A stretch of 64,000 bases of DNA, from positions 32,001-96,000 of IMG/VR virus record IMGVR_UViG_2931736537_000001; one strand, given 5' to 3'. Each line of letters begins with the position of its first letter. Position 1 is the first letter of the stretch. Below the pieces are notes generated by a model, which worked only from the letters and a program-made list of their open reading frames with translations, searched no databases and was not told the DNA's origin. Made by a program: the position numbers and the translations under genes. The DNA comes from a virus (taxonomy: Duplodnaviria; Caudoviricetes). This document shows, piece after piece, positions 11,642 to 49,058 of the stretch.

Positions 11642-11742
11642 CCCACCCGGAACCACACCCAGGCCGCCGCCTTACCCGCCCGGGCGGCGGCCCACCGCAC
11701 ACCCTCGGGCGGACGCCGAGAACACCAGATCGGAGACCCGAA

Positions 11743-12006: not shown

Positions 12007-12010
12007 CCTG

Positions 12011-16345: not shown

Positions 16346-16469
16346 CCTCCAGCCCCAGTAGCCCCCGCTCGCGCGCGGGGCTACGGCTCCTTCAGCACCT
16401 GGGCGATGCGGCACGTCTATGGTGCGGCCTATTCACCCCGTGCGGCCCATCCGGCTGCCACCGAGCCGA

Positions 16470-20387: not shown

Positions 20388-20759
20388 CCGCAGCACCACT
20401 GTGCCGTCCGCAACGCTAAGGCGATCGCCCGGCTGCGGACGGCCCTGGCCCGAGCAGTCCGGCCGGCCCCGCCGCTCTCGTACGGCCTCGGGGCACGTCC
20501 TAATCATCCCACCGGGCAACGGGCCGTCAGCGGGCGACCGTCGATGCGGTCCGTACCCGGTTGTCGGCGGCAGCCGGTACCGTAGTGACCACGGCATGAC
20601 GCGAACCGCCGTTTCCGCTGCCGCCCCAGCGCCCACGCCGCACCGGGGCAGCGCCGTCGGACAAGGACCGCACCAGGGTCCCGCGCAGCACCACCTGAAG
20701 CACCCGTCCGTCCGGCTGCGCCCCTCACGCGACGTCCGGCGGGAAGCGTGGGGTCCCGC

Positions 20760-22723: not shown

Positions 22724-22975
22724 TCACAGCTCCCGGTGGATCACCTCGACGCCGTCGGCCCACGTCCGCACCGGCTCCCGTTCCTCGCCGGCGTCCACCT
22801 CGAGCGTGACGGTCACCCCGCGGACGCTGCCGTGCGTCCCGACCAGCGCCCGGAACTTGCGCAGGGCCACCTCGCCGTCGGCCCAGGTCCCCTCGATCGC
22901 CGGGCCGCCCTTGCGGAACGTCATCCGTACGTGGAAGTCCCCGCCGTCGGAGGGCTCGGCGGGCGGGGTACTCAC
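22724..22975 (-). CDS. Hypothetical protein coupled to recombinase
   Basis: GTGA overlap with recombinase stop. Confidence 0.6.
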   Translation of the reverse strand: MSTPPAEPSDGGDFHVRMTFRKGGPAIEGTWADGEVALRKFRALVGTHGSVRGVTVTLEVDAGEEREPVRTWADGVEVIHREL

Positions 22976-28406: not shown

Positions 28407-28552
28407 GAGGGCAGCGTATCCGCCGTCGTGGGACCGGTGCTGGTGGGCGCTCGTGTGCAGCGCAGTAACCATTCTTCGAAATCTTGTTCCCGTGCGGTGA
28501 ATGTCCGGATACCGTCTGTGGAAGCAAGATCGCACGTTGGGGGGACACGCCC

Positions 28553-29215
28553 ATGCACGTCACTGCCGAAACCAGTACCGAGAGGCCCCCGGGCCCCCGC
28601 GCCCGCGGAGAGGTGCTGACCGTCCGCCAGCAGAAGATCGTGGCGTACATCGCTCGCTTCCTCGACGAGCACGGCTACCCGCCGTCGATGCGCGAGATCG
28701 GCGCTGCCGTGGGCCTGTCCAGTACCTCGTCCGTCGCCTACCAGCTCCAGGCTCTGGAGAAGAAGGGCGCGCTGCGTCAGGACCCCAACCGCCCGCGCGC
28801 CTACGTCCTGGCGGACAGCCGGACCGAGGCGAGCCCGGCCGTCGTTGCCCACGTGCCCCTGGTGGGGCGCATCGCCGCCGGCACGCCGATCCTGGCGGAG
28901 GAGATGGTCGAGGACGTGCTCACGTTCCCGCGGCACGTCGTCGGAGATGGCGAGCTGTTCGCGCTGAAGGTCGTGGGCGAGAGCATGATCGGCGCGGCCA
29001 TCTGCGACGGAGACGTGGTGACCGTCCGCCGGCAGGCCAGCGCCGAGCCGGGCGACATCGTGGCCGCCATGCTGGACGGCGAGGCCACGGTCAAGCGCCT
29101 GAAGCGGGACGCGGGACGGGTCTGGCTGATGCCGCACAACCCGGCGTACGCGCCCCTCGCCGGCGACGAAGCGGTCATCCTCGGCAAGGTCGTCGCCGTC
29201 CTGCGGACCCTATGA
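28553..29215 (+). CDS. lexA: LexA repressor
   Basis: [25 protein letters not shown] cleavage site, GESM (Ser), EATVKR (Lys). Confidence 0.95.
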
Positions 29216-33452: not shown

Positions 33453-33842
33453 TCAGGCCGCCGCGGCGGTGCCCGTCTCGGCCGGGCCCCGGTCGACGCC
33501 CTCGGGGGCCACCAGCCGCTCCAGGAAGGCGCCGATCAGTTCGACCGGCACCTCACCGGTGAAGGTGGCGGTCCAGGAGCGCGGCTTGGCCGGTACCGCG
33601 AGGAACTCCTGGTCGTGGCCGGGCGCGAAGGTGACCGCCTGGACCTTCCAGAGGACGTCGGTGCTGGCGTACTCGGCCGACTCGGGCTGGAACACCAGCC
33701 GGGCCTGCCCGCCGGGCGCCACCATCTGGCTGTTGTCCGTCGGGACGGAGTGCAGGGTCCACCCGGCCGCGGCCAGGAGGTCGAAGGCGACCTGCGGTTC
33801 GCCCTCGTCGGCCAGGAGCGCCGGGATGTTGGTCGTCGTCAT
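33453..33842 (-). CDS. DUF317 domain protein
   Basis: LAAAGW...WTATFTGEVPVELIGAF. Confidence 0.75.
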   Translation of the reverse strand: MTTTNIPALLADEGEPQVAFDLLAAAGWTLHSVPTDNSQMVAPGGQARLVFQPESAEYASTDVLWKVQAVTFAPGHDQEFLAVPAKPRSWTATFTGEVPVELIGAFLERLVAPEGVDRGPAETGTAAAA

Positions 33843-35596: not shown

Positions 35597-36327
35597 GTGG
35601 CGCTCCGCACCATCGCGCGGTGCGCGGCCTTCACGGCGCGGGCGGTCGGTGCGACGAAGGCGTGCAGCAGTTGCAGCGCGCCGTCGCACTGGGCGCCGAC
35701 GGCCGCGAGGTCGCGGTGCCGTCGGCGGCGGGTGCCCCGACCGGAGGGGTCGACCAGGTCGAGTTCGTGGACGACCTCGTGCCGGGCGTTGAAGAACGGC
35801 TGGTGGCTCTTGAGTATCTGGTCGTCGAGGGCGGGATCGTTCTTCAGGCCGAGGGCGTTGCGGCAGCGGATGAGGTCGGCGCCCCCCTGGATGCTGGAGC
35901 CGGTTAGGTCCTGGACGTAGAGGTCGATCAGGGCCGAGCGGGGGTCGATGTCGACGACGGCCTGCTTGGTGGCCCGGGTCATGTCGCCGTTGAGCCGGTT
36001 GGCCATGAAGTGGGCGACGAAGGCGCCGTGTGCGTCGCCGGCGGTGGAGAGCAGGGTCGGCAGCGAGTCGCGCAGCAGGGTGCGCAGGCAGGCGTCGATG
36101 CCGGCCGCGGTGAAGACGATCGCGGCGCGGGCCTGGTCGCGGTGGGTCTCGGAGACGGCGCCGCGCATGTCGTCCTGGGCGGCGCGCAGTTCGTTGAGTG
36201 TGGTGAACAGTCCGGACACGGACTTGTGCGTGGCCTTCAGCCTCTCCCAGCTGCGCTGGACCTCCGTGGGGCAGCCGTGGGGCTTGTGGGGAAGGTCGCT
36301 CAGCTCGACGAGGGTCAGTTTCGACAA
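35593..36327 (-). CDS. Putative HEPN-domain protein
   Basis: RAAIVFTAAGIDACL helix and C-terminal RHEVVH (Rx4H); AAGGAG RBS, TTG start. Confidence 0.65.
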   Translation of the reverse strand: MSKLTLVELSDLPHKPHGCPTEVQRSWERLKATHKSVSGLFTTLNELRAAQDDMRGAVSETHRDQARAAIVFTAAGIDACLRTLLRDSLPTLLSTAGDAHGAFVAHFMANRLNGDMTRATKQAVVDIDPRSALIDLYVQDLTGSSIQGGADLIRCRNALGLKNDPALDDQILKSHQPFFNARHEVVHELDLVDPSGRGTRRRRHRDLAAVGAQCDGALQLLHAFVAPTARAVKAAHRAMVRSAT

Positions 36328-36643
36328 CGTCTCTCCTTGGCCGTGTCCGCGTGGTGCCCGCGGTCCTCTCGCCTCGAAGTATGCGCGGTGTCCGACCGCC
36401 GTGTCACAAAATAAGAGCAAGCAGCTAGCGATCACACCTCCCCTCGTCCAGCCAGCCCATCGTTTCGGCTCGTGTCGAACCGAGTCGTACGTGCCGGTCC
36501 GGTACGGACATTGCGAACCTCCGACCCTCCGGCCACGCGCTCCCCCACCCCTGCCAACCCATGTATCAGGGTGTTCGGCTGTTTGCTGTTATTTAGTTAC
36601 ACGAGGGTCGGACACCCGCGCGCAGCCGGTGCCCGATCCCTTC

Positions 36644-37390
36644 CTACTGCTGGGGCGGGATGACGCTCGGCTCGCCCTCGCCCGAACCGTCGCCGGCCGA
36701 CGGCGTCCTCGAGCTGGCACGCCGTGCTCGGCGCTCCTCGATCTCCCGCATCATGCGCTCCCGCTCCTCCTGCACGGCCGGACCGGTCACCTGCTTGTAC
36801 CGACGGACCAGCTCATCGAGTTGTGCGGAGATGCCGTCCAACGCCTCCTCCAGCCGCAGCGTCGGCCGCTCCTCCGCGAGGGACTCCGCCCACGTGGAGA
36901 TATCGACGGTGTACTCCGCGGGCTCCATCTCGTCGTACGGGCCCTTGGCCCGAACCGTGAACACGTAGACGCTGGGCAGTTCCGTCCCCCACCGGTCGTG
37001 ATCGTCGAACAGGTAGGTCAGGCGCCGCCCCGGCGGCAGCATCGGGATCGGACGAGTCAGTACCCGCTGGAGGATCTCGGTCGGCTCCTCGCCCCAGGTC
37101 GTCTCGAGCGGCCGGTCCGCGCTGATCCGTACGTTGCGCGCGACCGTGGTACCGATGTTCTGGATGACGAGAACCATCAACGCGTGCCCGGGCATGTAGG
37201 GCTCGATGTCCACGATGACGTATGGCTCGTTCTGCTCGCGGTGGACGCGCTCCGCCAGCTCCAGCTGCTTCTTCCCAGAACTGCGGGCGATGTTCGCTTG
37301 CCACGCACTGATGACGGCCGCGATGACGGCAACGACTGCGGTTCCGAGACCGATCCAGTCTCCGGCGTCCAGCGCCTCGAGGTGATCCAT
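36644..37390 (-). CDS. Hypothetical protein with N-terminal TM segment
   Basis: TM helix then PYVIVD...NIGTTVARNV...LPPG. Confidence 0.75.
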   Translation of the reverse strand: MDHLEALDAGDWIGLGTAVVAVIAAVISAWQANIARSSGKKQLELAERVHREQNEPYVIVDIEPYMPGHALMVLVIQNIGTTVARNVRISADRPLETTWGEEPTEILQRVLTRPIPMLPPGRRLTYLFDDHDRWGTELPSVYVFTVRAKGPYDEMEPAEYTVDISTWAESLAEERPTLRLEEALDGISAQLDELVRRYKQVTGPAVQEERERMMREIEERRARRASSRTPSAGDGSGEGEPSVIPPQQ

Positions 37391-37463
37391 GCGGGCACGC
37401 TATCGGCCGGTACCGACACCGGGGCGAGCCCTCCCTACGGTGGCCGGTACGGACCGGTCGCGC

Positions 37464-38291
37464 TCAGATCGCGGTACTGCAGAACTCACGCACGCCGCGC
37501 AGTGTCGTCCTCAGTTTCTGCTGGGTTGCCTGGCTGTCGAGGCGTACGTCCAGGGCGCCGGGCAGGGGGCTGTCGGCCCGCAGTCCGGCGGGCAGGCGTG
37601 AGGCGTCGAGGCCGTCCCGGCCGGCGATGAGCGTGCCCAGCTCGAAGCGGCTCACCGCGTCGGCTCCCGCGATGTGGTGGATGCCGGCTGTCTCCAGTGA
37701 CGCCAGCTCCAGCAGGGCGGCGGCCAAGTCGCCCACGTACACGGGGCAGCGGACGTCATCGGTGAACAGGGCGCCGGCGCGGGTACCGGCGGCCAGCTGG
37801 TACACGGTCTGCTCGTGAGCGGACCGTCCGTGGCCGATGATCAGCGACGTGCGGGCGACAGCGGCGTCCGGGTGCACGGCCAGGATCCCGGTCTCGGCCG
37901 CCGCCTTCGCTGCGCCGTACGGGGTGACGGGGTCTGGAAGGCAGGACTCGTCGTAGTGCACTCGCGAGCCGGAGAAAATGGCGTCGCTGGACACGTGGAC
38001 CAGGCGGATGCCGTGCTGCGCGGCGGCCATCGCGAGCCGGATGGGGCCCTGGGCCGTGATTGCCCAGTCGGCGGCGCCGCTCGAGACGTTGATGACGACG
38101 CGTGGCCGGACCTCGGCCAGGACGGCGTCGACGAGCTCCGGGTTGCGCAGATCCAGGTGGTGCCAGGCCGCGGTGGAGGCGTCGCCCGGTTTCGTGGCGT
38201 ACGTTGCGGCTGTGGTGTGCCCGGCTTCTGTCGCCTGTCGGACGAGTTCGGAGCCGAGGAAGCCGCTGCCGCCGATGATCAGAGTGGTCAT
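37464..38291 (-). CDS. RmlD-like NAD(P)-dependent sugar reductase (extended SDR)
   Basis: GGSGFLG, HVSSDAIFSG, YGAAK (YxxxK). Confidence 0.9.
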   Translation of the reverse strand: MTTLIIGGSGFLGSELVRQATEAGHTTAATYATKPGDASTAAWHHLDLRNPELVDAVLAEVRPRVVINVSSGAADWAITAQGPIRLAMAAAQHGIRLVHVSSDAIFSGSRVHYDESCLPDPVTPYGAAKAAAETGILAVHPDAAVARTSLIIGHGRSAHEQTVYQLAAGTRAGALFTDDVRCPVYVGDLAAALLELASLETAGIHHIAGADAVSRFELGTLIAGRDGLDASRLPAGLRADSPLPGALDVRLDSQATQQKLRTTLRGVREFCSTAI

Positions 38292-38442
38292 GGAGCGACA
38301 CGGTAGACCGCTCGGAGCCGGTGGCGATGGACCCCTCGACGGTCGCCGGGACGCCGCCGGCCCGTGGCGGCCACCGCGAAGTGCAGGTGACCGGCACGGG
38401 CCGACAGCGTTCGGTCCCGGCGGGCGGGCAGTTTCGGACCGT

Positions 38443-38898
38443 CTACGCGGGTGCCCAGACGTAGCAGATGTCCGGCTCCCGCTCGTCGTTGCGGGCGCCG
38501 TCGGTTCGGTCGGCCTCGACGAAGCCGTGCCTCTCGTAGAAGCGACGGGCCGGACGGTTCACCTGGAACGTCCACAGCGTCAGTCCGCCCGGCTGCCGCT
38601 GCTTGGCCAGGTCCATGAAGCGGTCGCCCAGCCCGCGGCCGCGCCAGGCCGGGTCCAGATAGAGCTGCTTCAGCTCACGGCCGGCGAGCACCATGACGCC
38701 CACCACGCTGCTTCCGCTGGTCGCCACCCAGGTCTCGCGGTGCGGCACGAGCACGCGTGTGAACCAGTCCCGCACCTCGGCCGCGGTGTGGGCGCAGCGC
38801 ACTGAGGGCACGGCGGCGGCGTAGGAGCGCAGCCACACGTCGGCGGCGGGCAATGCGTCGGCGCTGTCGGCGCGACGGAGAACGACCTCGTGGGGCAT
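38443..38898 (-). CDS. GNAT acetyltransferase
   Basis: LYLDPAWRGRGLG, NRPARRFYERHGF. Confidence 0.9.
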   Translation of the reverse strand: MPHEVVLRRADSADALPAADVWLRSYAAAVPSVRCAHTAAEVRDWFTRVLVPHRETWVATSGSSVVGVMVLAGRELKQLYLDPAWRGRGLGDRFMDLAKQRQPGGLTLWTFQVNRPARRFYERHGFVEADRTDGARNDEREPDICYVWAPA

Positions 38899-38938
38899 CG
38901 TGCGTCATCTCCTGCTCGGTGCGGTGGCGGGCGGGGTT

Positions 38939-40261
38939 CTACTTGCCGGGTCGTCCGAGTTGGTGGACGGTCCAGCCGGCCGCGCGCCAGGGCTCGGGGT
39001 CGAGGCTGGTGCGGCAGTCGACGAGCAGGGGCTGGGCGGGCCGGTCCGCGAGGGTCTGGGGGTTGGCCTGCTGGTACTCGGGCCACTCGGTGGCCAGGAC
39101 GACGATGTCGGCTCCGTCGAGGGACGCGGGCAGGTCGTCGGTGTAGTCGAGCTCGGGGTTGCGGACCATCGCGGTGGTCACGGCCTGCGGGTCGTGGATC
39201 GTGATGGTGGCGCCGGCCTGTTGGAGGGCCTGCGCGAGGGCGAGGGCCGGGCTTTCCCGGACGTCGTTGGTGCCGGGCTTGAAGGCTGCGCCCCATACGG
39301 TGGCCTTGCTGCCCTTGATGGGGCGGTCGCCCAGGGCGCGGGTGATGAGGCCCAGGGCGACGGTCGTGCGGTTCTCGTTGATCACCTCGGCGGCGCGCAG
39401 GAGCGTGGCGGCCTGGTCGGCGCCGAGCTGCCGGGCGCTCGCGGTGAAGGCGCGAACGTCCTTGGGGAGGCAGCCGCCGCCGTAGCCGATGCCGGGCTGC
39501 ATGCCGCCGCTGCCGATCCGCGGGTCGATGCCGAGGATCTCCACGATCTGGGAGATGTCGCCGTCGGCGGCCTCGCACATGTCGGCGACGGCGTTGATGT
39601 AGCTGATCTTCAGGCCGAGGAACGTGTTCGCGGCGCCCTTGGCCAGCTCGGCGGTCTGCGGGTCGGTGACGAAGATCGGCACTCCCGCGTCGATGATCCC
39701 GGCGTACACCGCGCGGATCGCCTTTTCGCCCTCCGCGGTGGTGACGCCGGCGATGAGGCGGTCCGGGCGCAGGGTGTCCTCGACGGCGTGGCCTTCGCGT
39801 AGGAACTCCGGGTTCCAGACGACCTCCACCGCTGCGCCGGCGGGCGCCAGGCGCTGGGCGAGGGCGGTGACCTGTCGGGTGGTGCCGACGGTGACGGTGC
39901 TCTTGCCGACGATGGTGCACGGCTGGTGGAGGTGGGGGGCGAGTTGGCGGATGGCGCCGTAGACCTGGCCAGTGTCGTAGGAGCGGCCGTCGGCGTCGAT
40001 GGGGGTGCCGACGCCGATGAAGTGCAGCTCGGCGAAGTCGGCGGCCTCGCGGATGCTGGTGGTGAAGCGCAGGCGACCGTTGGCTGTGTGGCGGGCGAGC
40101 AGCTCGGGCAGGCCGGCCTCGTAGATGGGGCATTCGCCGGCGTTGAGCCGGTCGACCTTGGCCTGGTCGACGTCCACGCCGACGACCTCGTGGCCCAGTT
40201 CGGCCATGGCCGCTGCGTGGGGGATGCCGAGGTGGCCACAGCCGATCACGGATACGCGCAT
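38939..40261 (-). CDS. ugd: UDP-glucose/GDP-mannose dehydrogenase family
   Basis: GCGHLG, NPEFLREG, GYGGGCLPKD, AFKPGTNDVRESP. Confidence 0.93.
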   Translation of the reverse strand: MRVSVIGCGHLGIPHAAAMAELGHEVVGVDVDQAKVDRLNAGECPIYEAGLPELLARHTANGRLRFTTSIREAADFAELHFIGVGTPIDADGRSYDTGQVYGAIRQLAPHLHQPCTIVGKSTVTVGTTRQVTALAQRLAPAGAAVEVVWNPEFLREGHAVEDTLRPDRLIAGVTTAEGEKAIRAVYAGIIDAGVPIFVTDPQTAELAKGAANTFLGLKISYINAVADMCEAADGDISQIVEILGIDPRIGSGGMQPGIGYGGGCLPKDVRAFTASARQLGADQAATLLRAAEVINENRTTVALGLITRALGDRPIKGSKATVWGAAFKPGTNDVRESPALALAQALQQAGATITIHDPQAVTTAMVRNPELDYTDDLPASLDGADIVVLATEWPEYQQANPQTLADRPAQPLLVDCRTSLDPEPWRAAGWTVHQLGRPGK

Positions 40262-40356
40262 TGCAGAGTCCTTGTCTGGTCTGGGGGCACTCCGTGCCCG
40301 GTGTGCCCCCAGACGGTATCGGGATGTGAACTCGCCCTGGCCCGGGCGGAGTTCGC

Positions 40357-41601
40357 TCAGATGTTCACCTTGAGGAGTTCGGCCAGGTGCTGGAGGGCGG
40401 GGATCGCCTCGGAGCGGACGATGACGTCGCCCTCCCGGGCGCCCTCGATGAGGTATTCCTTGTGCACCCCGTTCTCGGTGACGCCCTCGGTGTCGAGGTA
40501 GAAGACCTTCAGGCCGCGCTCACGGGCGCGGGCCTGGACGGCGCGGCGGTCGGCGTGCAGGCCGATGACGAGCAGGGCCTTGGCGTCGTCGGGGAAGGGC
40601 ATGTACGGGGTGCGCTGGTCGTAGCGGCGCATGAACGCCTCTTGCAGCTCCGCCTTGGCGAACAGCCGGTCGAAGTTGTGGGTGGCCACCGGGCCGGTCA
40701 TCGCGCCGGCGTCGTGGAGCGCCTTCAGGACGCGGTGGGCGCTGGTCGGCTCGGCGAGGACCAGGGACCGGAACATGGAGGTCATGTCGTTGACCTTGCG
40801 GGTGGTGTCGGTCAGGACCTCCTTGACGAGGATGTCATCGGCGGGGACGAGGGTGAACTTGTATCCCTGGGTGAGGTCGTTGCCCGTGCGGGCGGTGACC
40901 CGGTAGACCTCGTGGAGCCAGTGCAGCGGCGGGATGCCGGCCTCGATGCTGGTCCCGCATCCGGCTTCCACGACGAACGGCAGGTAGTCCAGCAGGCCGG
41001 ACAGGTCGTCGGCGTAGGTCGGCGTGCCGCGCTGCTCCTTGACGCGCATGCCGCCGGCGAGGACGTCCCAGGGCAGGTTCCGGGCGGCCCGGGTGAGGGT
41101 GTAGTCCACGGAGTGGATCGTGACGTCGACCGACGTGAACCCGTCGGGGGTGTCGCGGTCGGCGCGTTCGTCCTGCGGGTGGGTGGTGTGCTCGGTGACG
41201 GTGGCGCGGAGGTCGCCGCGGCGCCAGGTGCCGGGCTCGTCGCTGGCCGGCTTCCATCGGCCCTCGGCGAGCCACTTGTCCAGCTCCTTGCGGTGGACGG
41301 CGACCTCGGCGGCCGGGGCCAGCCAGGACACGTACAGGTACAGCTCCTCGAGCACCAGGCGCTCCATGGGCTGGGTGCGGTCGAGGCCGTAGTGCAGGCG
41401 GTAGTGGACGACGCGGCGGCGTCCGGACTCGTCCTCGGTCCATCCGGACTGCTCGCGGTTGGCCGGGTCCTGGGTCCGCCGCCAGATGCCCTCCTCGATG
41501 GCCGGGCGGCGCTGGCCGCCGGCCTCCGGGGAGAAGTGCGCGTCCCACATGCTGACTTGCTCGGGGGTCAGGGAGTCGATCACGGGGTAGGGCAGGAACA
41601 C
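40357..41601 (-). CDS. Protein with unknown N-terminal domain and atypical SIR2/sirtuin-fold C-terminal domain
   Basis: AGCGTSIEAGIP, EPTSAHRVLKAL, THNFDRL, LLVIG; GGAGG RBS. Confidence 0.7.
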   Translation of the reverse strand: MFLPYPVIDSLTPEQVSMWDAHFSPEAGGQRRPAIEEGIWRRTQDPANREQSGWTEDESGRRRVVHYRLHYGLDRTQPMERLVLEELYLYVSWLAPAAEVAVHRKELDKWLAEGRWKPASDEPGTWRRGDLRATVTEHTTHPQDERADRDTPDGFTSVDVTIHSVDYTLTRAARNLPWDVLAGGMRVKEQRGTPTYADDLSGLLDYLPFVVEAGCGTSIEAGIPPLHWLHEVYRVTARTGNDLTQGYKFTLVPADDILVKEVLTDTTRKVNDMTSMFRSLVLAEPTSAHRVLKALHDAGAMTGPVATHNFDRLFAKAELQEAFMRRYDQRTPYMPFPDDAKALLVIGLHADRRAVQARARERGLKVFYLDTEGVTENGVHKEYLIEGAREGDVIVRSEAIPALQHLAELLKVNI

Positions 41602-41688
41602 GATGGTCCTCCTGAGCACTGGTGATTCGTGGTCACGAGCGCGCGGGGGCCGCGGTGGCCGTCTGCGGCGTTCGTGGTGGTGTCGGCG

Positions 41689-42993
41689 CTAGCCGTTGTG
41701 GTGCAGCGCGGTCGCCGCGTCGGCGAGCGCTGCGGTGAGGAAGTCGATGTCCTCGTCCGTTGAGGTCAACGGTGGGGCGACGACCAGCCCTTCGGTGCGC
41801 GGCTGGCCGGCCCCGGTGAACGGGTAGAAGAAGACGTCGCGCTCTTCGGTGGCCTCCATCAGGGGCCAGAGCAGACCGGGCTCGACCTCGACGCCGTACA
41901 GGTGCCCGAGCCCGCGCACGGTCCTCACCGGCCCTCGGCCGGCCAGTTCGTGCAGGGCCCGTCCGAGTCGCTCGCCGCGGGCGGTGAAGGCGTTGTGGTC
42001 CATGGATTCCAGCTCGTCCAGGACGCCGAGGCAGGCTGCCGCCTGCAGCGGGTGGGTGGCCATGGTGCCCATCGCGGGCAGTGGGTCGGCGTTCTGGTGG
42101 CGGATGAGGGGTGCGATGTCGGGCGCGACGAGTACGGCTCCGATGCCGGTGTAGCCGGCTCCCAGCCCTTTGGACAGGATGCACAGGTCCGGTTCGGCGC
42201 CGTCCCAGTGGTGGCTGGCCAGGGGTGTGCCGGTGCGCCAGAGCCCGGTCAGCACCTCGTCGTGGATGACGAGGACCTCACGTTCCCGGCAGATCTCCGA
42301 CACGCGCCGCAGGTACCCGGCGGGCGGGACGTAGGCCCCGCCGGTGGTGCCGTTCACTGGTTCGAGCAGGACGGCGGCGACGTTCTCCGCTCCCCTGTTG
42401 TCGATCGCCTTGGCCACCTCGTCGGCGCACGAGGCGTCGCACTCGCGCTGTTCGTGGCTGTGCGTCGGCGGGTAGGGCGCGGCGAAGGCCGGTCCGAGGC
42501 CGAGGGCGTCCTCGGGGTGGGGTCGTCGGGCGTGGTTCCCGGCGAGCGCGAGGGTCAGGGCGCTGTTGCCGTGGTAGCTCAGGGTGGACGTCAGGATGTC
42601 CCCTCGGCTCTTCCCGCCTCGGCGCATTCGGGTGATGTTCCGGGCCAGGCCCACGGCGACCTCGACGCCCAGGGTGCCGCAGGTCGTCAGCGCGACGGAG
42701 TCTTCCGTGCGTCCCACGGCGCGGCAGAGGCGGTCCATCAGTTCCATCTGGATGTGGGGCTGGACGACGGCCGCGCCTCCGAAGGAGTAGCGGTGGAACT
42801 GCTGCTCGATGCGGGCGAGGACCTTCGGGCTGCTCTGCCCCACGTTCGCGCAGAGGAGGCCGCTCGATCCGTCGAGGATCCGCCGGCCATCGGCGCGGTG
42901 GAGCCAGGAGCCGCTGGTGGCCACGACGTCGAAGTCCGGCAGGGGCCTGGATGACGTCAGCAGCCTTGTGCGGCTGGGTAAGTACCGATCCAC
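41689..42993 (-). CDS. Class III PLP-dependent aminotransferase
   Basis: LDGSSGL, SYHG, LLEPVNG, DEVLTGLWRTG, SKGLG (PLP Lys). Confidence 0.93.
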   Translation of the reverse strand: MDRYLPSRTRLLTSSRPLPDFDVVATSGSWLHRADGRRILDGSSGLLCANVGQSSPKVLARIEQQFHRYSFGGAAVVQPHIQMELMDRLCRAVGRTEDSVALTTCGTLGVEVAVGLARNITRMRRGGKSRGDILTSTLSYHGNSALTLALAGNHARRPHPEDALGLGPAFAAPYPPTHSHEQRECDASCADEVAKAIDNRGAENVAAVLLEPVNGTTGGAYVPPAGYLRRVSEICREREVLVIHDEVLTGLWRTGTPLASHHWDGAEPDLCILSKGLGAGYTGIGAVLVAPDIAPLIRHQNADPLPAMGTMATHPLQAAACLGVLDELESMDHNAFTARGERLGRALHELAGRGPVRTVRGLGHLYGVEVEPGLLWPLMEATEERDVFFYPFTGAGQPRTEGLVVAPPLTSTDEDIDFLTAALADAATALHHNG

Positions 42994-43267
42994 GTAGGAC
43001 GTCCCTTCTTGGGCGTGCTCGCACGCGGGCGCGCGGGAGCACGACGGCGGGTCTGTGTGGAAGGTGGCCGAGCGCGCCTTGCAGGGTTCCGGGAACGGCG
43101 ATGACCTGCGGTCGCGTCCGGAGGTCCGACTGCTCGACCGCTTCCGACGATACTCATAACACCCCCTTACGCATAGGGTTTCGAGAGTGATCGTGTGTCC
43201 TGCGGCACATCTCGGCCAGGTGTCCCTGTCGGCAGGCATATGCGGCGATCGCAGCCGAGCGCCGTCA

Positions 43268-43298
43268 ATGGCACCGAGCCCCCTGAGCTGGGTGCCAT
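43268..43298. promoter_or_regulatory. Inverted repeat ATGGCACCGAGC-N7-GCTGGGTGCCAT (candidate GntR operator)
   Basis: 11/12 inverted repeat in the divergent intergenic region. Confidence 0.4.
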
Positions 43299-43372
43299 GA
43301 TTAAGAAAACATGGCGGTCGGACACACCGTCAGCGGGCGCACCCCGCCCGAGGTGACGAGTGAGGGGACTTT

Positions 43373-44053
43373 GTGGCCAGGCGCACGACGGCCTACCGGC
43401 GCGTCGCCCAGGAGCTGCGCGACCAGATCGCAGGCGGGCAGCTCAAGGAAGGCGACCGCATTCCGTCCCTGACGGAGCTGCAGGCCGAGTTCGGTGTCTC
43501 GGACACCGTGATCCTGGAGGCTCGCAAGGTCCTGGTGGCCGAGGGCCTCCTCGTCGCGCGGACCGGCGACGGCACGTACGTCCGTGAGCGGCCCGAGCCG
43601 CAGCGCCTGCTGCACGGTGAGCCGGCCGAGGCCGGGCAGCCCTGGTTCCGGCTGGAAATCGGCGAGTCCGCCCTGTTCCCCGACGTAGTCGAGGTGGAGC
43701 CGGAGACGAGCGTGCCGGCGCCCGCCGACGTAGCTCGGCACCTGGGCGTCCGTACGGGTCGCCGGGTGCGCCGCGCGGTGCGGCTCTTCCGGCACGACGG
43801 CTCCGCCGTGCAGCTGGTGACCGCTCACGTGCTGGCGAGCGGAAAGGCGGAGACCGCAGCGACGGAGGAGCAGGTCACCTCGCGGCCGGCGCTGGATTCG
43901 GAGGCCCGGGCGTTGGACGGCGTAGTCGGCCAGCCGGTGACCGTGGTGACCCGTGTGGAGCGTCCGGAGTCCGGCCGGGCCCGCGTGCTGCAAACGGTGG
44001 TGCTGGCCGACCGGTTCAGCCTGGTCTACCAGCCTGGGCGCCCCGGGGAATGA
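43373..44053 (+). CDS. GntR (HutC-like) transcriptional regulator
   Basis: YRRVAQELR...IPSLTELQAEFGVS...GTYV; degenerate UTRA-like C-terminus. Confidence 0.88.
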   Translation: MARRTTAYRRVAQELRDQIAGGQLKEGDRIPSLTELQAEFGVSDTVILEARKVLVAEGLLVARTGDGTYVRERPEPQRLLHGEPAEAGQPWFRLEIGESALFPDVVEVEPETSVPAPADVARHLGVRTGRRVRRAVRLFRHDGSAVQLVTAHVLASGKAETAATEEQVTSRPALDSEARALDGVVGQPVTVVTRVERPESGRARVLQTVVLADRFSLVYQPGRPGE

Positions 44054-44177
44054 CGGCACCCCGGCCACGGGGCCGGGGTGCCGAGGGGGGACGCAGACCT
44101 GCCCTGCGGGCCGGGCTACGGGGCGAGCGTAGCCCTGGGTCAGGGGCAGTGTCGGGCAGTTCGGGTGATGTCGCCGC

Positions 44178-44576
44178 TCAGGCGACGCCCTTGGCCCAGC
44201 CCGGGGTGCAGGAGATGATCGTCTTGTTGCCGTTCTCCCCGATGCACGCCTGGTAGTAGACGGTGGTGCCCTCCGGGATGGCGGTCCCGTAGCTCTTGTA
44301 GCGGGCGGTGCCCTTGCCGTCGGGGTTGAACAGGTTGTGCGCGATGCCGACGGAGGGGACGTAGACGCGGACGACGGCCGAGTGGCCGTCGGCCTTCGTG
44401 TCCTCGACCCAGAAGACGTCGCCGTAGTGCTTGAACCAGGCCGTTGCGCCGCGGGTGGGGTCGACGACGCTTCCGCCGTCGGAGCCGGCACTCGCGGCGG
44501 AGGCGGTGGCGAACAGCAGGGCGGTGGACGCGGCGAGCGCGCCGGCGACGTAGCCGAAGCGGGTGCGGAAACGCAT
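44178..44576 (-). CDS. Small secreted protein
   Basis: Sec signal peptide ending ASA; two C-terminal Cys; AAGGAG RBS. Confidence 0.8.
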   Translation of the reverse strand: MRFRTRFGYVAGALAASTALLFATASAASAGSDGGSVVDPTRGATAWFKHYGDVFWVEDTKADGHSAVVRVYVPSVGIAHNLFNPDGKGTARYKSYGTAIPEGTTVYYQACIGENGNKTIISCTPGWAKGVA

Positions 44577-44673
44577 GGGGAACTCCTTCTTCAGGGGATC
44601 GGGGCAGCAGGTGGTGTGCTGGGCCGCGCCGGGCCGGGCGGATCGGGACGTCTGGCCCGGCGCGGACCCGGAA

Positions 44674-44919
44674 TCAGCGGCCGAAGGCACCCCAGGCGCC
44701 GACGATGAGGGCGCCGAGGGCGATCAGGACGCTGAGGGTGGGAAGGGGCCAGCGGGCACGCTCGAGCGCGGCGACGCGTTCCTGGAGGTCCGCGACGTCC
44801 TTGTCGGTCTGGTCGGTGCGCTGGACCAGCAGGGCCAGTTGGCCGTCGATGCCCGCCAGCCCGACTTCGAGGCTGCGGCGCAGGTCAGCCAAGGCGAGAG
44901 CGACCTCTCCGTCGGGCAT
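44674..44919 (-). CDS. Phage lysis-region membrane protein
   Basis: Coiled coil plus C-terminal TM helix; follows holin. Confidence 0.75.
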   Translation of the reverse strand: MPDGEVALALADLRRSLEVGLAGIDGQLALLVQRTDQTDKDVADLQERVAALERARWPLPTLSVLIALGALIVGAWGAFGR

Positions 44920-44935
44920 GGTCAGGTCCTTTGTG

Positions 44936-45193
44936 CTAGGAGCGGGTGGTGGGGTCGGACTTGGCCGGCAGCCAGGAGGCGGTGCCGAGCTTCCCGAGGC
45001 GGGTGCCGATGGCGCCCTTGATGACGGTGAGTCCGGCGGGGATCGAGGCGACGGCCGCGGACTGCAGGACCGAGAGGTCGACGACGTCGGTGGCGGCCCC
45101 GGCGAGCAGGAGGCCGAGGAACGCCTCGGCGTAGGTCAGGGCGGTGCGCTCGGCGACGTCGGCGAGGGCCTCGGTGGTGGACTTGGCTGCCAT
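44936..45193 (-). CDS. Holin (r1t-like)
   Basis: DVAERTALTYAEAFLG...; two hydrophobic segments; follows endolysin. Confidence 0.8.
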   Translation of the reverse strand: MAAKSTTEALADVAERTALTYAEAFLGLLLAGAATDVVDLSVLQSAAVASIPAGLTVIKGAIGTRLGKLGTASWLPAKSDPTTRS

Positions 45194-45213
45194 GGGGTGT
45201 CTCCCTTGAGGTG

Positions 45214-46677
45214 TCAGGCGGTTGCGGTGAAGCCATGCCGGGCGGCCAGGCGGCGCAGCGAGTCGAGGCCGGGGTAGCCGTCGGCGGCCGAGCCGGTGTA
45301 GGAGCCGCCGGCCTTGCTGCGCTGCCAGGCGGCGTACGCGGTCCGGGTCTTGGTGCCGAAGGAGCCGTCGGCGTACCGGCGGGCGAGTAGGCCCTCGGCG
45401 ACCAGGGCGTCCTCGACGAGGCCGACCTCGCCCGGGTAGGTGGTGTGGCCGTCCGGGGCGGGGATGTCCGCCTTGGCTGCGGCGACCATGTGGGCGACGC
45501 TGACCTTGCGCTTCGCGGAGGCGGCCGGGATGTCCTTGCCGCGGCCGGTGACCAGCAGTTCCCACGTGGTCGGTCCGGGGATTCCGTCCGCGTCCGCGCC
45601 GCTCCAGCCCTGGGCCGTCTGGAAGGCCTTGGTCGCGTCGCGGTCGGCGTCGCTCCAGCGCGGGCCGGCGCCGACGGAGTAGAAGCGCTTGCCGCCGCGG
45701 GCGATGAGCATGGTGCCCAGCCGGGTGACGTGGGCGTTGTTGGCGCCCGGGCCGAAGACGCCGACGCCGGGGAAGGCGTCCTTGGCGGGCTTGCTCGGTG
45801 CCGGCGTGCTGCCGGTGCCGCCCAGGATCTTCCGGGTGTCGACCGCACCGGGGTCGCCGTGGTCGTTGCCCGGGACGTGGGCGTGGGCGAAGTGGCCGCC
45901 CTTGTTCTGCCAGGTGCTGCGCGAGCGCGCCGAGTAGCCGCCGGGGTACTTCGGCGGGGCACCGGCCGGCCACACGTCGGGGACGCCCCAGGAGCGGGCG
46001 GCGGCCAGGATCTTCTGCCAGCCCGGCTTCTTCGCCGGGTCCCAGCCGGTCGTCCAGGGGTTCTTGGCGTACGCCAGGACCTCGATCTGGATGTTGACGC
46101 GGCCTTCGCGGTTCGTCCGGCGGCTGCCGTCGTTGCGCAGGGCGCGGGCGCTCTGGTTGAGCGGTCCGAACTGGCCGACGCGGTCGGTGACCGGGCAGTA
46201 GATCAGGTGCGGTTCGGAGGCGACTCGGATCAGGTACGAGCCGATCGACTCCAGGTACTTGCCGCCGGCCGGGGACTCGGTGCTGTGGTGGGTGACCCGC
46301 GGCGGGTTGCCGGGGGTGTCCATCGCCCCGCCGATAACGCCGTCGCCGAGCCGGATGGCGCCGGAGATCCACGCGGTGCCGGTGGCGCCGCGCGGCAATT
46401 CACCGGCCGGCGGGAGGTCGTCGGCGACGGCCCGCGGCTCGGGGTCGGGCATGTAGGCGGGCGCGGGGGCGGCGTCGACCGGCTCGTACCAGTCCAGGTC
46501 GCCGTCCTCGCGGAGCACGAACAGCGCGCCGGGGCGGCTGGGGTGCTCGACGGTGAACCGGGGGCTGGTGTCGGCGGCCGCGATGGCGCGGACCTGGTCG
46601 AGGTGGTCCTGGGTGACCTCGCCGCAGTAGGTGACGGACTGGTCGGGGTGGACGATGGCAGCGTGGAAGGCGGACAT
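45214..46677 (-). CDS. Endolysin: amidase with peptidoglycan-binding domains
   Basis: HHSTE, IQIEV, HAHVPGNDHGDPG; ADGIPGPTTW and DGSFGTKT binding repeats. Confidence 0.9.
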   Translation of the reverse strand: MSAFHAAIVHPDQSVTYCGEVTQDHLDQVRAIAAADTSPRFTVEHPSRPGALFVLREDGDLDWYEPVDAAPAPAYMPDPEPRAVADDLPPAGELPRGATGTAWISGAIRLGDGVIGGAMDTPGNPPRVTHHSTESPAGGKYLESIGSYLIRVASEPHLIYCPVTDRVGQFGPLNQSARALRNDGSRRTNREGRVNIQIEVLAYAKNPWTTGWDPAKKPGWQKILAAARSWGVPDVWPAGAPPKYPGGYSARSRSTWQNKGGHFAHAHVPGNDHGDPGAVDTRKILGGTGSTPAPSKPAKDAFPGVGVFGPGANNAHVTRLGTMLIARGGKRFYSVGAGPRWSDADRDATKAFQTAQGWSGADADGIPGPTTWELLVTGRGKDIPAASAKRKVSVAHMVAAAKADIPAPDGHTTYPGEVGLVEDALVAEGLLARRYADGSFGTKTRTAYAAWQRSKAGGSYTGSAADGYPGLDSLRRLAARHGFTATA

Positions 46678-46692
46678 GCGTGACGCTCCTCG

Positions 46693-47508
46693 TCAGGCGT
46701 GGAGTTGGATCGCGTCGACCTGCTCGCGCAGCGCGACGTAGGTGGACAGGCGCAGGAAGAAGTCGCCGCCTTGGCCCCAGGCCGGGCCCCAGGAGTTGCG
46801 CAGCCGCAGCACGGTCCGCTCCGGGACGACGCGGCCGTCGCTGTACTGGGCGACCTCCTCGAGGCCGATGGCACACACCTCGTGGCCGCCGGCGAGGCCG
46901 GAGGTCCGCCAGTACGGGACGGTGTCGACGAAGCCGTCCGCTGCGGGCGTGAACCAGGCGTTGAACCAGGGCAGACCGAGCAGGACCGGCCCCTTCTGCA
47001 GGGCGGCGGCCAGCGCCGCGGCGTCCAGGGCGTGGGTGTAGGAGCCGATCAGGCCGCGGCTCTTCAGGACGCGGGCGACGCCGAGGCCGGAACTGCCGCT
47101 GTCGGCCGGCGGCCACTGGTAGGGCACGAACTCGTCGACGGCGGTGGCCTCGGAGTACAGCTGCAGCGCCCACTGCTCTGCGGCGACCGCGTCGTCGGTG
47201 GGCAGTCCCGCCCGCTCGAGGGCGGGTGCGTCGAGCAGGACGGACAGGGCCGCCGCCGCGGCGTTCGCCGTGCAGGAGCCGACGGCGTCGACGTCCCGGG
47301 TGCCGGTGATGGTGGAGGTGTGGATGCCCTGGGCGAGCAGGTCCTGCTGGTTCAGGACGGGGATGGCGGGCTGCCAGCGCACCGGCTGCAGCGCTTCACC
47401 ACCGTGGGTCTCGCGGTGGGCCAGTGAGCGGGCGTCGAGGACCTGGTGGCGGCCGAGCGCCGGATGGACGTCGTAGTGGCGTACGAGGACGCCGTGCGTG
47501 GTGGGCAC
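46693..47508 (-). CDS. Papain-like (C1) cysteine peptidase
   Basis: Q...GSCTANA, GGHEV, RNSWG...WG..G. Confidence 0.85.
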   Translation of the reverse strand: MPTTHGVLVRHYDVHPALGRHQVLDARSLAHRETHGGEALQPVRWQPAIPVLNQQDLLAQGIHTSTITGTRDVDAVGSCTANAAAAALSVLLDAPALERAGLPTDDAVAAEQWALQLYSEATAVDEFVPYQWPPADSGSSGLGVARVLKSRGLIGSYTHALDAAALAAALQKGPVLLGLPWFNAWFTPAADGFVDTVPYWRTSGLAGGHEVCAIGLEEVAQYSDGRVVPERTVLRLRNSWGPAWGQGGDFFLRLSTYVALREQVDAIQLHA

Positions 47509-47709: not shown

Positions 47710-49044
47710 TCAGGTGCCGTCGATGAGGCGTTCGGCGAGGAACGGGCTAAACGTGCCGGCGGGGGTGTCGGCGGGGGCGATGCCGCACTGCCCGTCGCTG
47801 TCCCCCGGGTACTTGATCCAGAGCAGGTACTCGGCGCCACCGACGCCGATGGAGCTGGGGACGCCGAGGCGCCGCCCGGCGGGGTTGCAGTAGTCGACGT
47901 GCTGGCCGCGGTCGTCCATCGCTCCGTTGCCGTTGCGGGCGGTGTCGATGACGAAGGTGACACCGGGGACTCCGGCGGCTGCGAGGGCGGCGACGACCTG
48001 CTGGCCGTACTGACAGGAGATGTCGGTGGAGTCGAAGTTGCTGACGCCGATGGCGATGCGCCTGGTCGCGGCGACGCCGCCCCGGATGAGCTGGGCGGCC
48101 ATTTGGACGGGGCGGAGCCAGGTGGCGTTGCCGGCGTCGAGGTACGCCTGGACGCGGGGTCTCGCGGCGAGGGCCTGTGCGATGTACGTGCACAGCTCGT
48201 ACCGGGTTGCCCGGGCCTCCGGGGTGGGCAGTTGCTCGGCCTGGGCCAGGGAGTCCGGCTCGACGATGACGATCGCCGGCCGGTCCCCGAGCCCGGCGAC
48301 GAAGGCGTCGACCCACGCCTTGTACGCCTCGGGGGTCGCCGCGCCGCCGCTGCTTTCGCCTCCGTTGTCCCGCCAGTACATGGCGTACGCGGCCAGGATG
48401 GGGACCTGCCCGGCCGCGGCGGCCGCGGCGACGTACGCGTCGACGTCCGTCTGGATGGTGGTGTTCCAGTCGCCGAACCAGCGGGCGCCCGGACGCCGCG
48501 CTATCGATTGGCGGATCTTCGCGGCGCGGCCGTCGGTGGGGTTGGCCGCCAGCCACTTCGCGGCGTTGCTGTCGGGGTCGACGTAGAAGCCTTCTCGGAT
48601 GGTCGACGTGGTGAGCCGGACCTGGGCGAAGGTGATGGTGACGGGGCTGGCCTGCCCCATCTGGAAACTGACCTGCCCGGCCGCGGTGTCCAGGTCGGAC
48701 ACGAAGGTGTACACGAAGCTCGTGTCGCTCATCCCGAGGGTGATGGTCTTGTCCAGGGCCGGGGTCCACGGGTCGACGCCGAGCCCGACCTGCACCCGGA
48801 GCTGGGCGCCAGCCTGCGAGGCCCTCGCCGTGAAGCTCAGGGTGTACCGGGCGCCCTTGCGCAGCACGATGTTGTCCTGCCCGAAGGGCGCGTCCCAGAG
48901 GTTCAGGGCATCGGTGGTGGCCACGGCGTCCATGCCGCCGGGGCCGGGCGCGATGGTCACCATGGCGGGGTCGCCGGCCCACCAGGAGGCGGTGCCGTCG
49001 GTGAAGTCGGGGTTGTCGATCAGGTCGCCGTACATGCCGGCCAT
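47710..49044 (-). CDS. CBM4/9 + GH6 endoglucanase, no signal peptide
   Basis: LIDNPDF...W...GQDNIVLRKGARYTLSFTA (CBM4); FYVDPDS, RD..GESSGGA, EPDSL, YLDAG, IDTARNGNG, WIKYPGDSDG (GH6). Confidence 0.9.
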   Translation of the reverse strand: MAGMYGDLIDNPDFTDGTASWWAGDPAMVTIAPGPGGMDAVATTDALNLWDAPFGQDNIVLRKGARYTLSFTARASQAGAQLRVQVGLGVDPWTPALDKTITLGMSDTSFVYTFVSDLDTAAGQVSFQMGQASPVTITFAQVRLTTSTIREGFYVDPDSNAAKWLAANPTDGRAAKIRQSIARRPGARWFGDWNTTIQTDVDAYVAAAAAAGQVPILAAYAMYWRDNGGESSGGAATPEAYKAWVDAFVAGLGDRPAIVIVEPDSLAQAEQLPTPEARATRYELCTYIAQALAARPRVQAYLDAGNATWLRPVQMAAQLIRGGVAATRRIAIGVSNFDSTDISCQYGQQVVAALAAAGVPGVTFVIDTARNGNGAMDDRGQHVDYCNPAGRRLGVPSSIGVGGAEYLLWIKYPGDSDGQCGIAPADTPAGTFSPFLAERLIDGT

Positions 49045-49058
49045 GAACGCGGTCTCCT

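Follow-up and report, generated by a model that had tools for sequence, protein, structure and literature searches.

What is a cassette of five enzyme genes, one of them coding for a protein that resembles a sirtuin, doing beside the lysis genes of a phage? The question is raised by a stretch of 64,000 nt (the window), which comprises bases 32001-96000 of the 141,694-bp IMG/VR record IMGVR_UViG_2931736537_000001 and has a G+C content (GC) of 70%; the record is 97% complete by CheckV. An earlier note on this DNA had described genes for an aminotransferase, an atypical sirtuin, a uridine diphosphate (UDP)-glucose dehydrogenase (Ugd), a GNAT acetyltransferase and an RmlD-like reductase as phage-borne cargo and as a self-contained pathway. 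We regard the sirtuin-like protein, here called SIRL, as a new class of sirtuin and the sugar-pathway cassette that holds it as new too, and its phage carriage as real but secondary. The reading that we favour, at a probability of about 0.4, is that the cassette is a mobile, self-regulated unit that makes a modified nucleotide-sugar or a sugar metabolite derived from nicotinamide adenine dinucleotide (NAD), carried as cargo by a temperate Streptomyces siphophage. A biosynthetic pathway is the best reading because the coupling of SIRL to Ugd is strict, because the five genes recur together despite changes in their order, and because sugar enzymes are found in the neighbourhoods of the family as a whole.

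The SIRL-Ugd core in Streptomycetaceae

Two sets of loci were compared, a first set of 17 genome loci found with SIRL, whose neighbours were identified by tblastn, and a wider set of 20 loci from a sample of 401 Streptomycetaceae genomes, two of which duplicate earlier loci and were dropped from the combined table. This table holds the 32 loci with a called full SIRL open reading frame (ORF), L007, L012, L015 and L018, in which none was called, being left out (loci are cited by our own handles). Ugd lies directly downstream of SIRL in 16 of the 17 first-set loci, the exception ending at a contig edge, and the two genes are adjacent in 18 of the 20 loci of the wider set. Across the combined table Ugd is present in 29 loci, the aminotransferase in 14, the GNAT in 10, the RmlD-like gene in 5 and a GntR regulator in 6, while two families of XRE regulators account for 11 and 9. 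Counted by set, the aminotransferase occurs in 13/17 and 7/20 loci, a GNAT follows Ugd in 8/17 and 3/20 (it is placed elsewhere in L009, L013 and L014), and the RmlD-like gene is found in 3/17 loci of the first set. Across all sets, the RmlD-like gene accompanies the cassette in L003, L005, L013, L055, L064 and L156, and at its place two plasmid loci, L162 and L164, have a gene annotated 'sugar nucleotide-binding protein'. All five enzyme genes occur together in L003, L005, L055, L156, L162 and L164, and in L055 and L164 SIRL stands ahead of the aminotransferase.

The flanks of these loci vary, with WhiJ-like regulators, transposases and a recombinase among them, and SIRL is carried by 13 plasmid records. 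It was found in 25 of the 401 sampled Streptomycetaceae genomes, the centre genome counted, and in 0 of 400 other sampled Actinomycetota. The cassette is therefore a conserved, co-inherited unit in many unrelated chromosomal and plasmid contexts, and the earlier note's own ground for dropping its proposal, a loss of synteny in other genomes, does not apply. Its picture of a self-contained pathway of five genes holds as regards this co-inheritance but not as regards its composition: the invariant core in Streptomyces is SIRL and a dedicated Ugd paralogue, and the aminotransferase, the GNAT and the reductase are often present but can be absent.

The genes themselves were called by third-position GC, which marks five minus-strand genes within 37464-42993, with gaps of 40-151 nt between them, and one plus-strand gene at 43373-44053. 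Together with the family matches (Table 1), this agrees with the earlier description of five co-oriented enzyme genes beside a lysis cassette, with a divergent GntR gene.

Table 1. Features of the cassette and of its phage surroundings, in window coordinates
Feature	Position	Strand	Evidence and remarks
RmlD-like short-chain reductase, 275 aa, last cassette gene	37464..38291	-	PF04321 9e-39, PF01370 1.5e-21
GNAT N-acetyltransferase, 151 aa	38443..38898	-	PF13508 2.8e-13, PF00583 2.2e-10
UDP-glucose 6-dehydrogenase (Ugd), 440 aa	38939..40261	-	three UDPG_MGDP_dh domains; TIGR03026 5e-126, above cut-off
SIRL (sirtuin-like), 414 aa, two domains	40357..41601	-	longest ORF to alternative GTG start 41619
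Class III (omega-type) pyridoxal-phosphate aminotransferase, 434 aa, first cassette gene	41689..42993	-	PF00202 1.8e-63
Inverted repeat ATGGCACCGAGC-N7-GCTGGGTGCCAT	43268-43279 / 43287-43298	.	12-nt arms, 92% complementary
GntR-family regulator, partial UTRA effector domain, 226 aa	43373..44053	+	PF00392 1.1e-17, PF07702 8e-8; divergent
Phage lysis region	44178..47508	-	170-aa ORF, 81-aa phrog_5225 protein, endolysin, peptidase (PHROG matches); borders cassette
Endolysin	45214-46677	same strand as cassette	phrog_17214, 2e-86
Peptidase	46693-47508	same strand as cassette	PHROG match
LexA/CI-like S24 repressor	28484-29215	+	likely immunity and recombination region
XRE regulator, 420 aa	30493-31755	+	phrog_5823, 1e-67
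Tyrosine recombinase, weak match	22972-24141	-	likely immunity and recombination region

Among models for Ugd, the cassette enzyme passes only the subfamily model TIGR03026; its scores with the equivalog models TuaD and AglM are 315.7 and 311.3 bits against cut-offs of 700 and 670, and thus its sugar substrate is not fixed by sequence. Its best solved structure is 4a7p (4e-88), and the catalytic-cysteine motif GGxCxPKD is kept, GYGGGCLPKD being aligned to GYGGSCFPKD of 4a7p. In five host genomes, the second-best Ugd copy shares only 48-49% identity with the cassette enzyme, which by its sequence is a dedicated, separate paralogue. The RmlD-like protein finds its best solved structures in deoxythymidine diphosphate (dTDP)-4-dehydrorhamnose reductases (1e-17) and scores 117.9 bits with the equivalog TIGR01214 rmlD, below the cut-off of 224, so that the gene can be called only an RmlD-like short-chain dehydrogenase/reductase (SDR). 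For the aminotransferase the best solved structure is 3i4j, a class III aminotransferase (8e-49). As had been remarked from the sequence, no glycosyltransferase or exporter is seen among the scanned ORFs that neighbour the cassette.

SIRL and its wider family

SIRL has no match in Pfam (E <= 0.01), NCBIfam or PHROG, and a single-sequence search of the PDB gives nothing below E 0.27. A profile built from 66 members of its family matches the sirtuin Sir2Tm with E 2.2e-6, over the first half of the sirtuin domain only (from the GAGxS loop to TQNID, residues 21-111 of Sir2Tm), and hhalign comparisons with six Streptomyces sirtuins give probabilities of 96.7-96.9%. The AlphaFold2 (AF2) model of SIRL, with a predicted local distance difference test score (pLDDT) of 93.3, finds Sir2Tm as its best Foldseek match (2.8e-7; template modelling (TM) score by target 0.57), and the matches are all sirtuins among the best 50 PDB matches listed. 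Taken one by one, 26 of the 66 members match PF02146, the best with 1.9e-8, whereas the window SIRL is unmatched at E <= 0.01 and the model also misses the SIRL loci of genomes G001-G003; four Pfam families are matched across the 66 members, and SIR2_2 is not among them. The C-terminal part of SIRL (about residues 200-420) is a truncated sirtuin fold with the NAD-pocket motifs kept, in agreement with the earlier assignment. In the source databases the relatives are annotated as 'hypothetical', 'SIR2 family protein' or 'Deacetylase sirtuin-type domain-containing protein'.

The motifs GCGTS, PTSAH and THNFD, on which that assignment had been based, are all present in the translation, GCGTS...AGIPP and THNFD standing for GAGxS...GIP and TQNxD of sirtuins. 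Within the 66-member alignment the pocket residues N315, D317 and R331 are conserved in 63, 66 and 65 members, and G353, H355, D357 and R358 of a GxHADRR loop in 66/66. The position of the catalytic His (H116 of Sir2Tm) is occupied by Arg332 if the HMMER alignment is extended without gaps, or by Pro343 according to hhalign. Of the 66 relatives, 24 have His in column 343, so that some members may keep the residue; the window SIRL does not. The protein is without any HG dipeptide and has one cysteine in its whole length, and only 35 residues lie between D317 and G353, where the Cys4 zinc-binding small domain is missing; both losses had been noticed from the sequence. The N-terminal part (about residues 7-195, some 195 residues) forms an alpha/beta domain with conserved GIWRRTQ, SGW, RRR and HPxD motifs. 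Already described as unrecognised, it stays so here: searched alone, it has a best Foldseek match to the PDB with E 0.039 and a TM score of about 0.2 (the pLDDT of the isolated AF2 model is 72.6), and an Atlas feature search with the domain returned no usable match.

SIRL belongs to a large family. Sequence searches gave 244 relatives, and at the level of 50%-identity representatives there are 233 clusters, 91 of them below 1e-30, most of which align along both domains in full. Metagenomes, scanned with a profile, gave 143 relatives, of which 80 loci were kept, with GC contents of 23 to 74% and identities of 29-49% save for one fragment at 86%; one named member comes from a Bacillota genome. 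Scans of viral contigs recovered 0 relatives with the single SIRL protein and 3 with the profile. The genes around these distant relatives were surveyed in 61 loci from metagenomes and viral contigs, each 4 kb or longer, with one representative annotated per neighbour family. The most frequent neighbour is an adjacent methyltransferase (23/61 loci), followed by GT2 enzymes resembling polyprenyl-phosphate glycosyltransferases (13/61), GT4 enzymes (13/61), an adjacent protein of about 270 aa (11/61), class IV aminotransferases (7/61), aldo-keto reductases (6/61), members of the inositol monophosphatase family (5/61), and O-methyltransferases, HAD hydrolases and APH-type kinases (4/61 each). Similar genes accompany SIRL in two Streptomycetaceae loci that lack Ugd, in which SIRL is 48-49% identical and the neighbours include class IV aminotransferase, HAD phosphatase, GT4, inositol-monophosphatase-family, APH-type kinase, NUDIX and methyltransferase genes.

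The neighbour of about 270 aa is a NUDIX hydrolase, since its family profile matches 3ees (1.4e-7) through the Nudix box; Pfam, searched with one representative, did not detect NUDIX in it. The domain is fused to SIRL in P0148, P0279 and an ORF of L080 (7995-10025), and a NUDIX hydrolase follows a distant SIRL directly in L081-L093, L105 and L110. The fused proteins have no PDB matches, and the fused domain is identified through the profile of the neighbour family. Closer to the window, NUDIX genes stand just after Ugd in L007, L015 and L065. The NUDIX fusions fit a product that contains adenosine diphosphate (ADP)-ribose.

SIRL would most likely use NAD+ as a substrate. This, with a sugar or nucleotide-sugar as the acceptor, is favoured because the Asn and Asp of the pocket are kept, because the His and the zinc module are lost, because of the NUDIX fusions, and because of the parallel with the SirTM sirtuins (PMC4518038). 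The route would begin with Ugd, which would supply UDP-glucuronate (UDP-GlcA). SIRL would bind NAD+ in the manner of a sirtuin, with Asn315 and Asp317 intact and no general-base His, and nicotinamide would be displaced; the ADP-ribosyl group would pass to an acceptor, a sugar or a nucleotide-sugar, bound in the N-terminal domain, which is rich in Arg and Trp, and no protein would be deacylated. A keto or aldehyde intermediate may then be aminated by the aminotransferase, N-acetylated by the GNAT and reduced by the RmlD-like reductase. GntR, acting at the inverted repeat, may keep the operon repressed until its UTRA domain takes up a ligand related to the pathway. Where relatives occur outside Streptomycetaceae, the fused or adjacent NUDIX domain, with phosphatases nearby in some loci, could trim the ADP-ribosyl adduct to a (phospho)ribosyl group.

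Carried to its full extent, this would make SIRL a new class of two-domain sirtuins, without His and without zinc, that ADP-ribosylate sugars or nucleotide-sugars, with NUDIX or phosphatase trimming of the product, and that are spread with Ugd by phage-plasmids in Streptomyces. We regard this wider proposal as tentative and somewhat unlikely as it stands. If it is true, an NAD+-dependent route of glyco-tailoring has gone unrecognised in glycan and natural-product clusters across many phyla, and the cassette spread by phage-plasmids gives lysogens a new uronate-derived metabolite or envelope modification.

The loss of the His can also be read as pointing to a protein target. SIRL would then be a protein-directed ADP-ribosyltransferase, or a regulatory subunit that senses NAD or ADP-ribose, with its operon partner Ugd as the target, in the way that SirTM acts on GcvH-L. 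As a partner, Ugd stands strictly next to SIRL, is dedicated, and is conserved to an unusual degree, and SirTM, the known sirtuin class without the His, acts on a protein of its own operon (PMC4518038). However, distant relatives of SIRL have a NUDIX protein or a methyltransferase as their immediate partner, the annotated neighbours include no eraser such as a macrodomain, and SIRL is without the zinc module that binds peptides. We consider this unlikely, while placing it foremost among the alternatives.

Next, and again unlikely, is a redox role, in which SIRL would use NAD+ as a cofactor and would oxidise, perhaps decarboxylate, UDP-glucuronate to a keto-sugar for the aminotransferase, the GNAT and the RmlD-like enzyme. 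The cassette would then be a non-orthologous copy of the five-enzyme Wbp (2,3-diacetamido-uronic acid) or of the Arn (4-amino-arabinose) logic. It does encode a producer of UDP-GlcA and consumers of keto- or aldehyde-sugars with no recognised 4,6-dehydratase or oxidase, SIRL is its only unassigned protein with an NAD fold, and the known five-enzyme route to diacetamido-mannuronic acid offers a precedent. The aminotransferase AcbV, which we take to belong to class III, counts on the same side. AcbV, an actinomycete enzyme, is a 4-aminotransferase whose substrate is a dTDP-keto-sugar (PMC8234114). Against a redox role stand the Asp and Asn of the nicotinamide pocket, which are invariant and in sirtuins serve cleavage of the glycosidic bond; the NUDIX fusions, which are easier to reconcile with an ADP-ribose product than with redox chemistry; the possibility that the oxidase is the RmlD-like SDR; and the many loci in which SIRL and Ugd occur without aminotransferase, GNAT or reductase. 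Moreover, we know of no hydride transfer described for the sirtuin branch of the fold.

The divergence of SIRL relative to its partner bears on a third alternative, a role in phage defence. Four SIRL types occur beside a single Ugd type (at least 78% identical), and in 71 of 406 pairs of loci Ugd is at least 84% identical where SIRL is at most 65% identical, the reverse pattern being seen in none. The L156 SIRL (9995-11245) is 46% identical to the window SIRL (40357-41601), while its neighbours are 76-87% identical to those of the window (aminotransferase 82%, Ugd 87%, GNAT and reductase within the range); this suggests that SIRL alone was replaced by another allele or is evolving very fast. 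Divergence is slightly greater in the N-terminal domain than in the sirtuin domain. Such swapped or fast-evolving alleles beside a constant Ugd, the patchy distribution among the Streptomycetaceae genomes, the place of the cassette in the cargo region of a temperate phage element, and an AbiV gene a few kb away in a related plasmid would suit anti-phage defence or superinfection exclusion, with SIRL as an effector that depletes NAD+ like the SIR2-domain defence systems. The best PADLOC match of SIRL is also to SIR2, but at E 0.017 and 11.9 bits it is not significant, and SIRL members match PF02146 and not SIR2_2. Characterised SIR2 NADases require the catalytic His, which SIRL lacks. No HerA, TIR, Argonaute, STAND-type or large-sensor partner is seen among the neighbours, the conserved partners across the whole family are enzymes of sugar and small-molecule metabolism, and the SIRL protein has no homologue in 50,697 phage records. 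The NAD-consuming defence role that the earlier note had allowed for thus finds little support, and we judge it quite improbable.

Several observations nonetheless weigh against the biosynthetic reading that we prefer. The nearest solved relatives of the aminotransferase are omega-transaminases that use small amines, and therefore a nucleoside diphosphate (NDP)-sugar is not its default substrate. NAD binding by SIRL is inferred from motif conservation and fold rather than from a ligand-bound model, and the loss of the His could equally mean a non-catalytic sensor of NAD or ADP-ribose. A SIRL that diverges much faster than Ugd shows a pattern that is also typical of conflict genes. The link to Ugd is confined to Streptomycetaceae, a clear adjacent Ugd being found in L156 alone among 83 metagenome and viral loci, and the neighbourhoods of the distant relatives are read from single representatives of each neighbour family. 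Finally, the window cassette contains no NUDIX, phosphatase, glycosyltransferase or exporter gene that would account for the fate of any product.

Regulator and phage context

The aminotransferase most likely starts, judging from its sequence context, at GTG 42993, which is preceded by the ribosome-binding-like AAGAAGGGA and aligns with the first codon of the gene in 15 of 21 related loci. These two features disfavour the first ATG of the ORF, at 43239. Third-position GC in the aminotransferase frame remains at 0.8-0.9 for about 150 nt 5' of the GTG start (43000-43150, minus strand), where the next in-frame start is found only at 43239. A conserved leader or riboswitch 5' of the gene was considered and set aside, since the upstream DNA of the 21 loci does not align past the ribosome-binding site; Rfam gave only a chance snoRNA-like match (E 0.12) within 36000-45000. 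With the start at 42993, the divergent intergenic region is 379 nt long. It contains, at 43268-43298, the inverted repeat that had been reported between the operon and GntR, and a near-identical repeat lies at the same place in L002. The repeat is the sole match in the window to its own half-site pattern, a post hoc result as the pattern was derived from the site, and we infer that it is a candidate GntR operator. A promoter and terminator scan of the cassette gave 0 promoters and 1 terminator-like site, not above shuffled sequences.

The top NCBIfam matches of GntR are PhnF and HutC, both below their cut-offs. Orthologues occupy the same position in L002 (97% identical) and L156 (75%), and distant GntR genes (30-34% identical) flank SIRL in L006, L063 and L064. 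A divergent GntR gene beside the cassette, as the earlier note described it, holds for the window but does not extend to most other loci, in which XRE-type regulators take its place. Regulators of the GntR/HutC-UTRA type typically control catabolic operons, and omega-transaminases and GNATs are common in amine catabolism. These points would suit a catabolic or salvage operon for the uptake and conversion of an amino- or uronic-sugar derivative, with GntR/UTRA as a repressor that responds to the substrate. Yet the cassette and its borders hold no transporter, kinase, hydrolase or isomerase typical of sugar catabolism, enzymes of the Ugd and RmlD-like kinds belong to nucleotide-sugar biosynthesis, and the regulator itself is exchanged in most loci; we deem a catabolic role very improbable, the least probable of the alternatives.

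The cassette is flanked by phage genes on both sides. On one side it borders the lysis region, whose genes are 95-100% identical in L002; at 74-82%, L156 matches three of the four, the peptidase, the endolysin and the phrog_5225 protein. Minor tail proteins and a tape measure protein of 1625 aa follow further downstream on the cassette strand (PHROG), and the genes for major head protein, scaffold, portal and large terminase lie just outside the window. On the opposite flank are six short or unknown ORFs, including one phrog_9607 match and one DUF317/SPDY protein, and beyond them an S24 repressor, an XRE regulator and a weakly matched recombinase (Table 1), which together are likely to be an immunity and recombination region. 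The XRE regulator of this region was examined as a possible part of the cassette and is taken as an unrelated phage regulator because it is only about 28% identical to the XRE proteins that flank SIRL. A tRNA scan found no genes.

Related complete records are plasmids. The linear Streptomyces plasmid NZ_CP054917.1 (L163; complete, 151,949 bp) carries GH6, LysM-lysin, holin and GntR genes and the five cassette genes in order, in a gene order that is that of the IMG/VR contig behind L156; the arrangement of lysis genes, GntR and cassette is common to L002 and L156/L163. After its cassette the plasmid has an abutting gene of the 2'-5' RNA ligase (2H phosphoesterase) family at 16129-16803 and, about 4 kb beyond, the AbiV abortive-infection gene (20015-20758); neither gene is found among the scanned ORFs of the window. 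By their annotation, the complete related records that bear the cassette (L162, L163 and L164) are plasmids, linear or circular, with lengths of 119-152 kb; one has lysis genes and the GH6 gene, and therefore the element is probably a phage-plasmid and not an integrated prophage. The cassette would thus be cargo of a temperate Streptomyces siphophage, most likely a phage-plasmid, placed between the lysis genes and the immunity and recombinase region. The lysogen might gain from it a change of its envelope, a protective metabolite or a signal. The description of it as phage-borne cargo is right in that the cassette lies inside phage DNA, but the cassette is not specific to phages: the phage-linked loci are the window, L002 and L156 only, and the others are chromosomal or plasmid. 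Against collections of phage genomes, the sole match of the cassette DNA is a 755-bp stretch of Ugd in a Pseudomonas phage. A temperate phage-plasmid that moves a metabolic pathway between Streptomyces hosts bears on how accessory metabolism spreads in antibiotic producers.

Further genes of the element deserve mention in their own right. The small SPDY/DUF317 protein (33453-33842, minus strand) has a domain typical of Streptomyces mobile elements, and a DUF317 gene is annotated in plasmid L163 too. At the end of the tail-gene block, a protein of 657 aa (47710-49683, minus strand) combines CBM_4_9 and GH6 (cellulase-type) domains; it may be a tail-associated depolymerase for beta-glucan of the Streptomyces surface, and a GH6 gene is found at the matching place in NZ_CP054917.1. 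Two DNA methyltransferase genes lie beyond the terminase, at 106911-108251 and 109181-110491 of the record (10911-12251 and 13181-14491 of L159), and the N-terminal part of one of the two products matches ParB-like partition-protein families.

Comparison with known systems

Our literature search found no description of a sirtuin-like gene together with Ugd and an aminotransferase, nor of the SIRL branch, which agrees with the earlier impression that the combination is not a described system. The available part of a review of viral NAD and ADP-ribose systems (PMC9503650) likewise contains no description of the gene combination or of this sirtuin branch. In its position between lysis and immunity or recombinase regions, its own divergent repressor and its occurrence outside phages as well, the cassette resembles prophage morons and the cassettes of lysogenic conversion. 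However, classical serotype-converting cassettes encode a glycosyltransferase, acetyltransferase or flippase that acts on the envelope, whereas the genes described here encode soluble pathway enzymes only.

Among pathways, the nearest are five-enzyme routes that begin with a dehydrogenase of the Ugd family, the Wbp route to UDP-diacetamido-mannuronic acid (dehydrogenase, oxidase, aminotransferase, acetyltransferase and epimerase) and the Arn route to UDP-4-amino-arabinose. Like the cassette, these routes group genes for a 6-dehydrogenase, an aminotransferase, an N-acyltransferase and an enzyme of the SDR type. In the cassette, however, the aminotransferase is of class III and not of the DegT type, and the acetyltransferase is a GNAT and not a left-handed beta-helix; there is no recognisable oxidase or decarboxylase unless SIRL or the RmlD-like SDR performs the step, and no glycosyltransferase or lipid-carrier step.

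The SIR2 anti-phage effectors (ThsA, DSR1/2, SIR2-HerA and SIR2-Argonaute) share with SIRL a SIR2-type fold, carriage on mobile elements and a patchy distribution, but SIRL falls in another Pfam branch, has none of the typical sensor or partner domains, and lies among metabolic genes throughout its family. The resemblance to SirTM (Rack et al. 2015, PMC4518038) is closer. SirTMs have Gln in place of the His and keep the Asn and Asp, act as ADP-ribosyltransferases and not as deacylases, and modify a protein encoded in their own operon; SIRL, too, has its His replaced and its Asn and Asp kept, and is found in an operon with partners. The differences are that the replacing residue is Gln (plus an active-site Arg) in SirTM and Arg or Pro in SIRL, that SirTM keeps the zinc domain which SIRL has lost, and that SirTM is linked to a macrodomain, GcvH-L and LplA2, whereas the partners of SIRL are sugar-nucleotide enzymes or NUDIX proteins. 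Indeed, no macrodomain eraser, GcvH-L or LplA2 is found among the annotated neighbours in the window and the related loci.

With the canonical sirtuin deacylases (Sir2Tm, CobB; PF02146), SIRL shares the Rossmann-type NAD-binding fold, Sir2Tm being the best match by both profile and fold, a GxGxS phosphate loop followed by E(A/S)GIP, and a TxNxD motif with the Asn and Asp of the nicotinamide pocket. It differs from them in the loss of the catalytic His and of the Cys4 zinc module, about 35 residues replacing the whole segment from TxNxD to the next core strand, in the additional N-terminal domain of about 195 aa, and in escaping PF02146 in the case of the window protein. The known uses of sirtuins are as protein deacylases, as protein ADP-ribosyltransferases and as immune effectors that deplete NAD. 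The SIRL branch, with its 233 clusters, its sugar-handling neighbours, its new domain and its loss of the His and of the zinc module that binds peptides, points to a fourth use of the fold, in the chemistry of small molecules or glycans.

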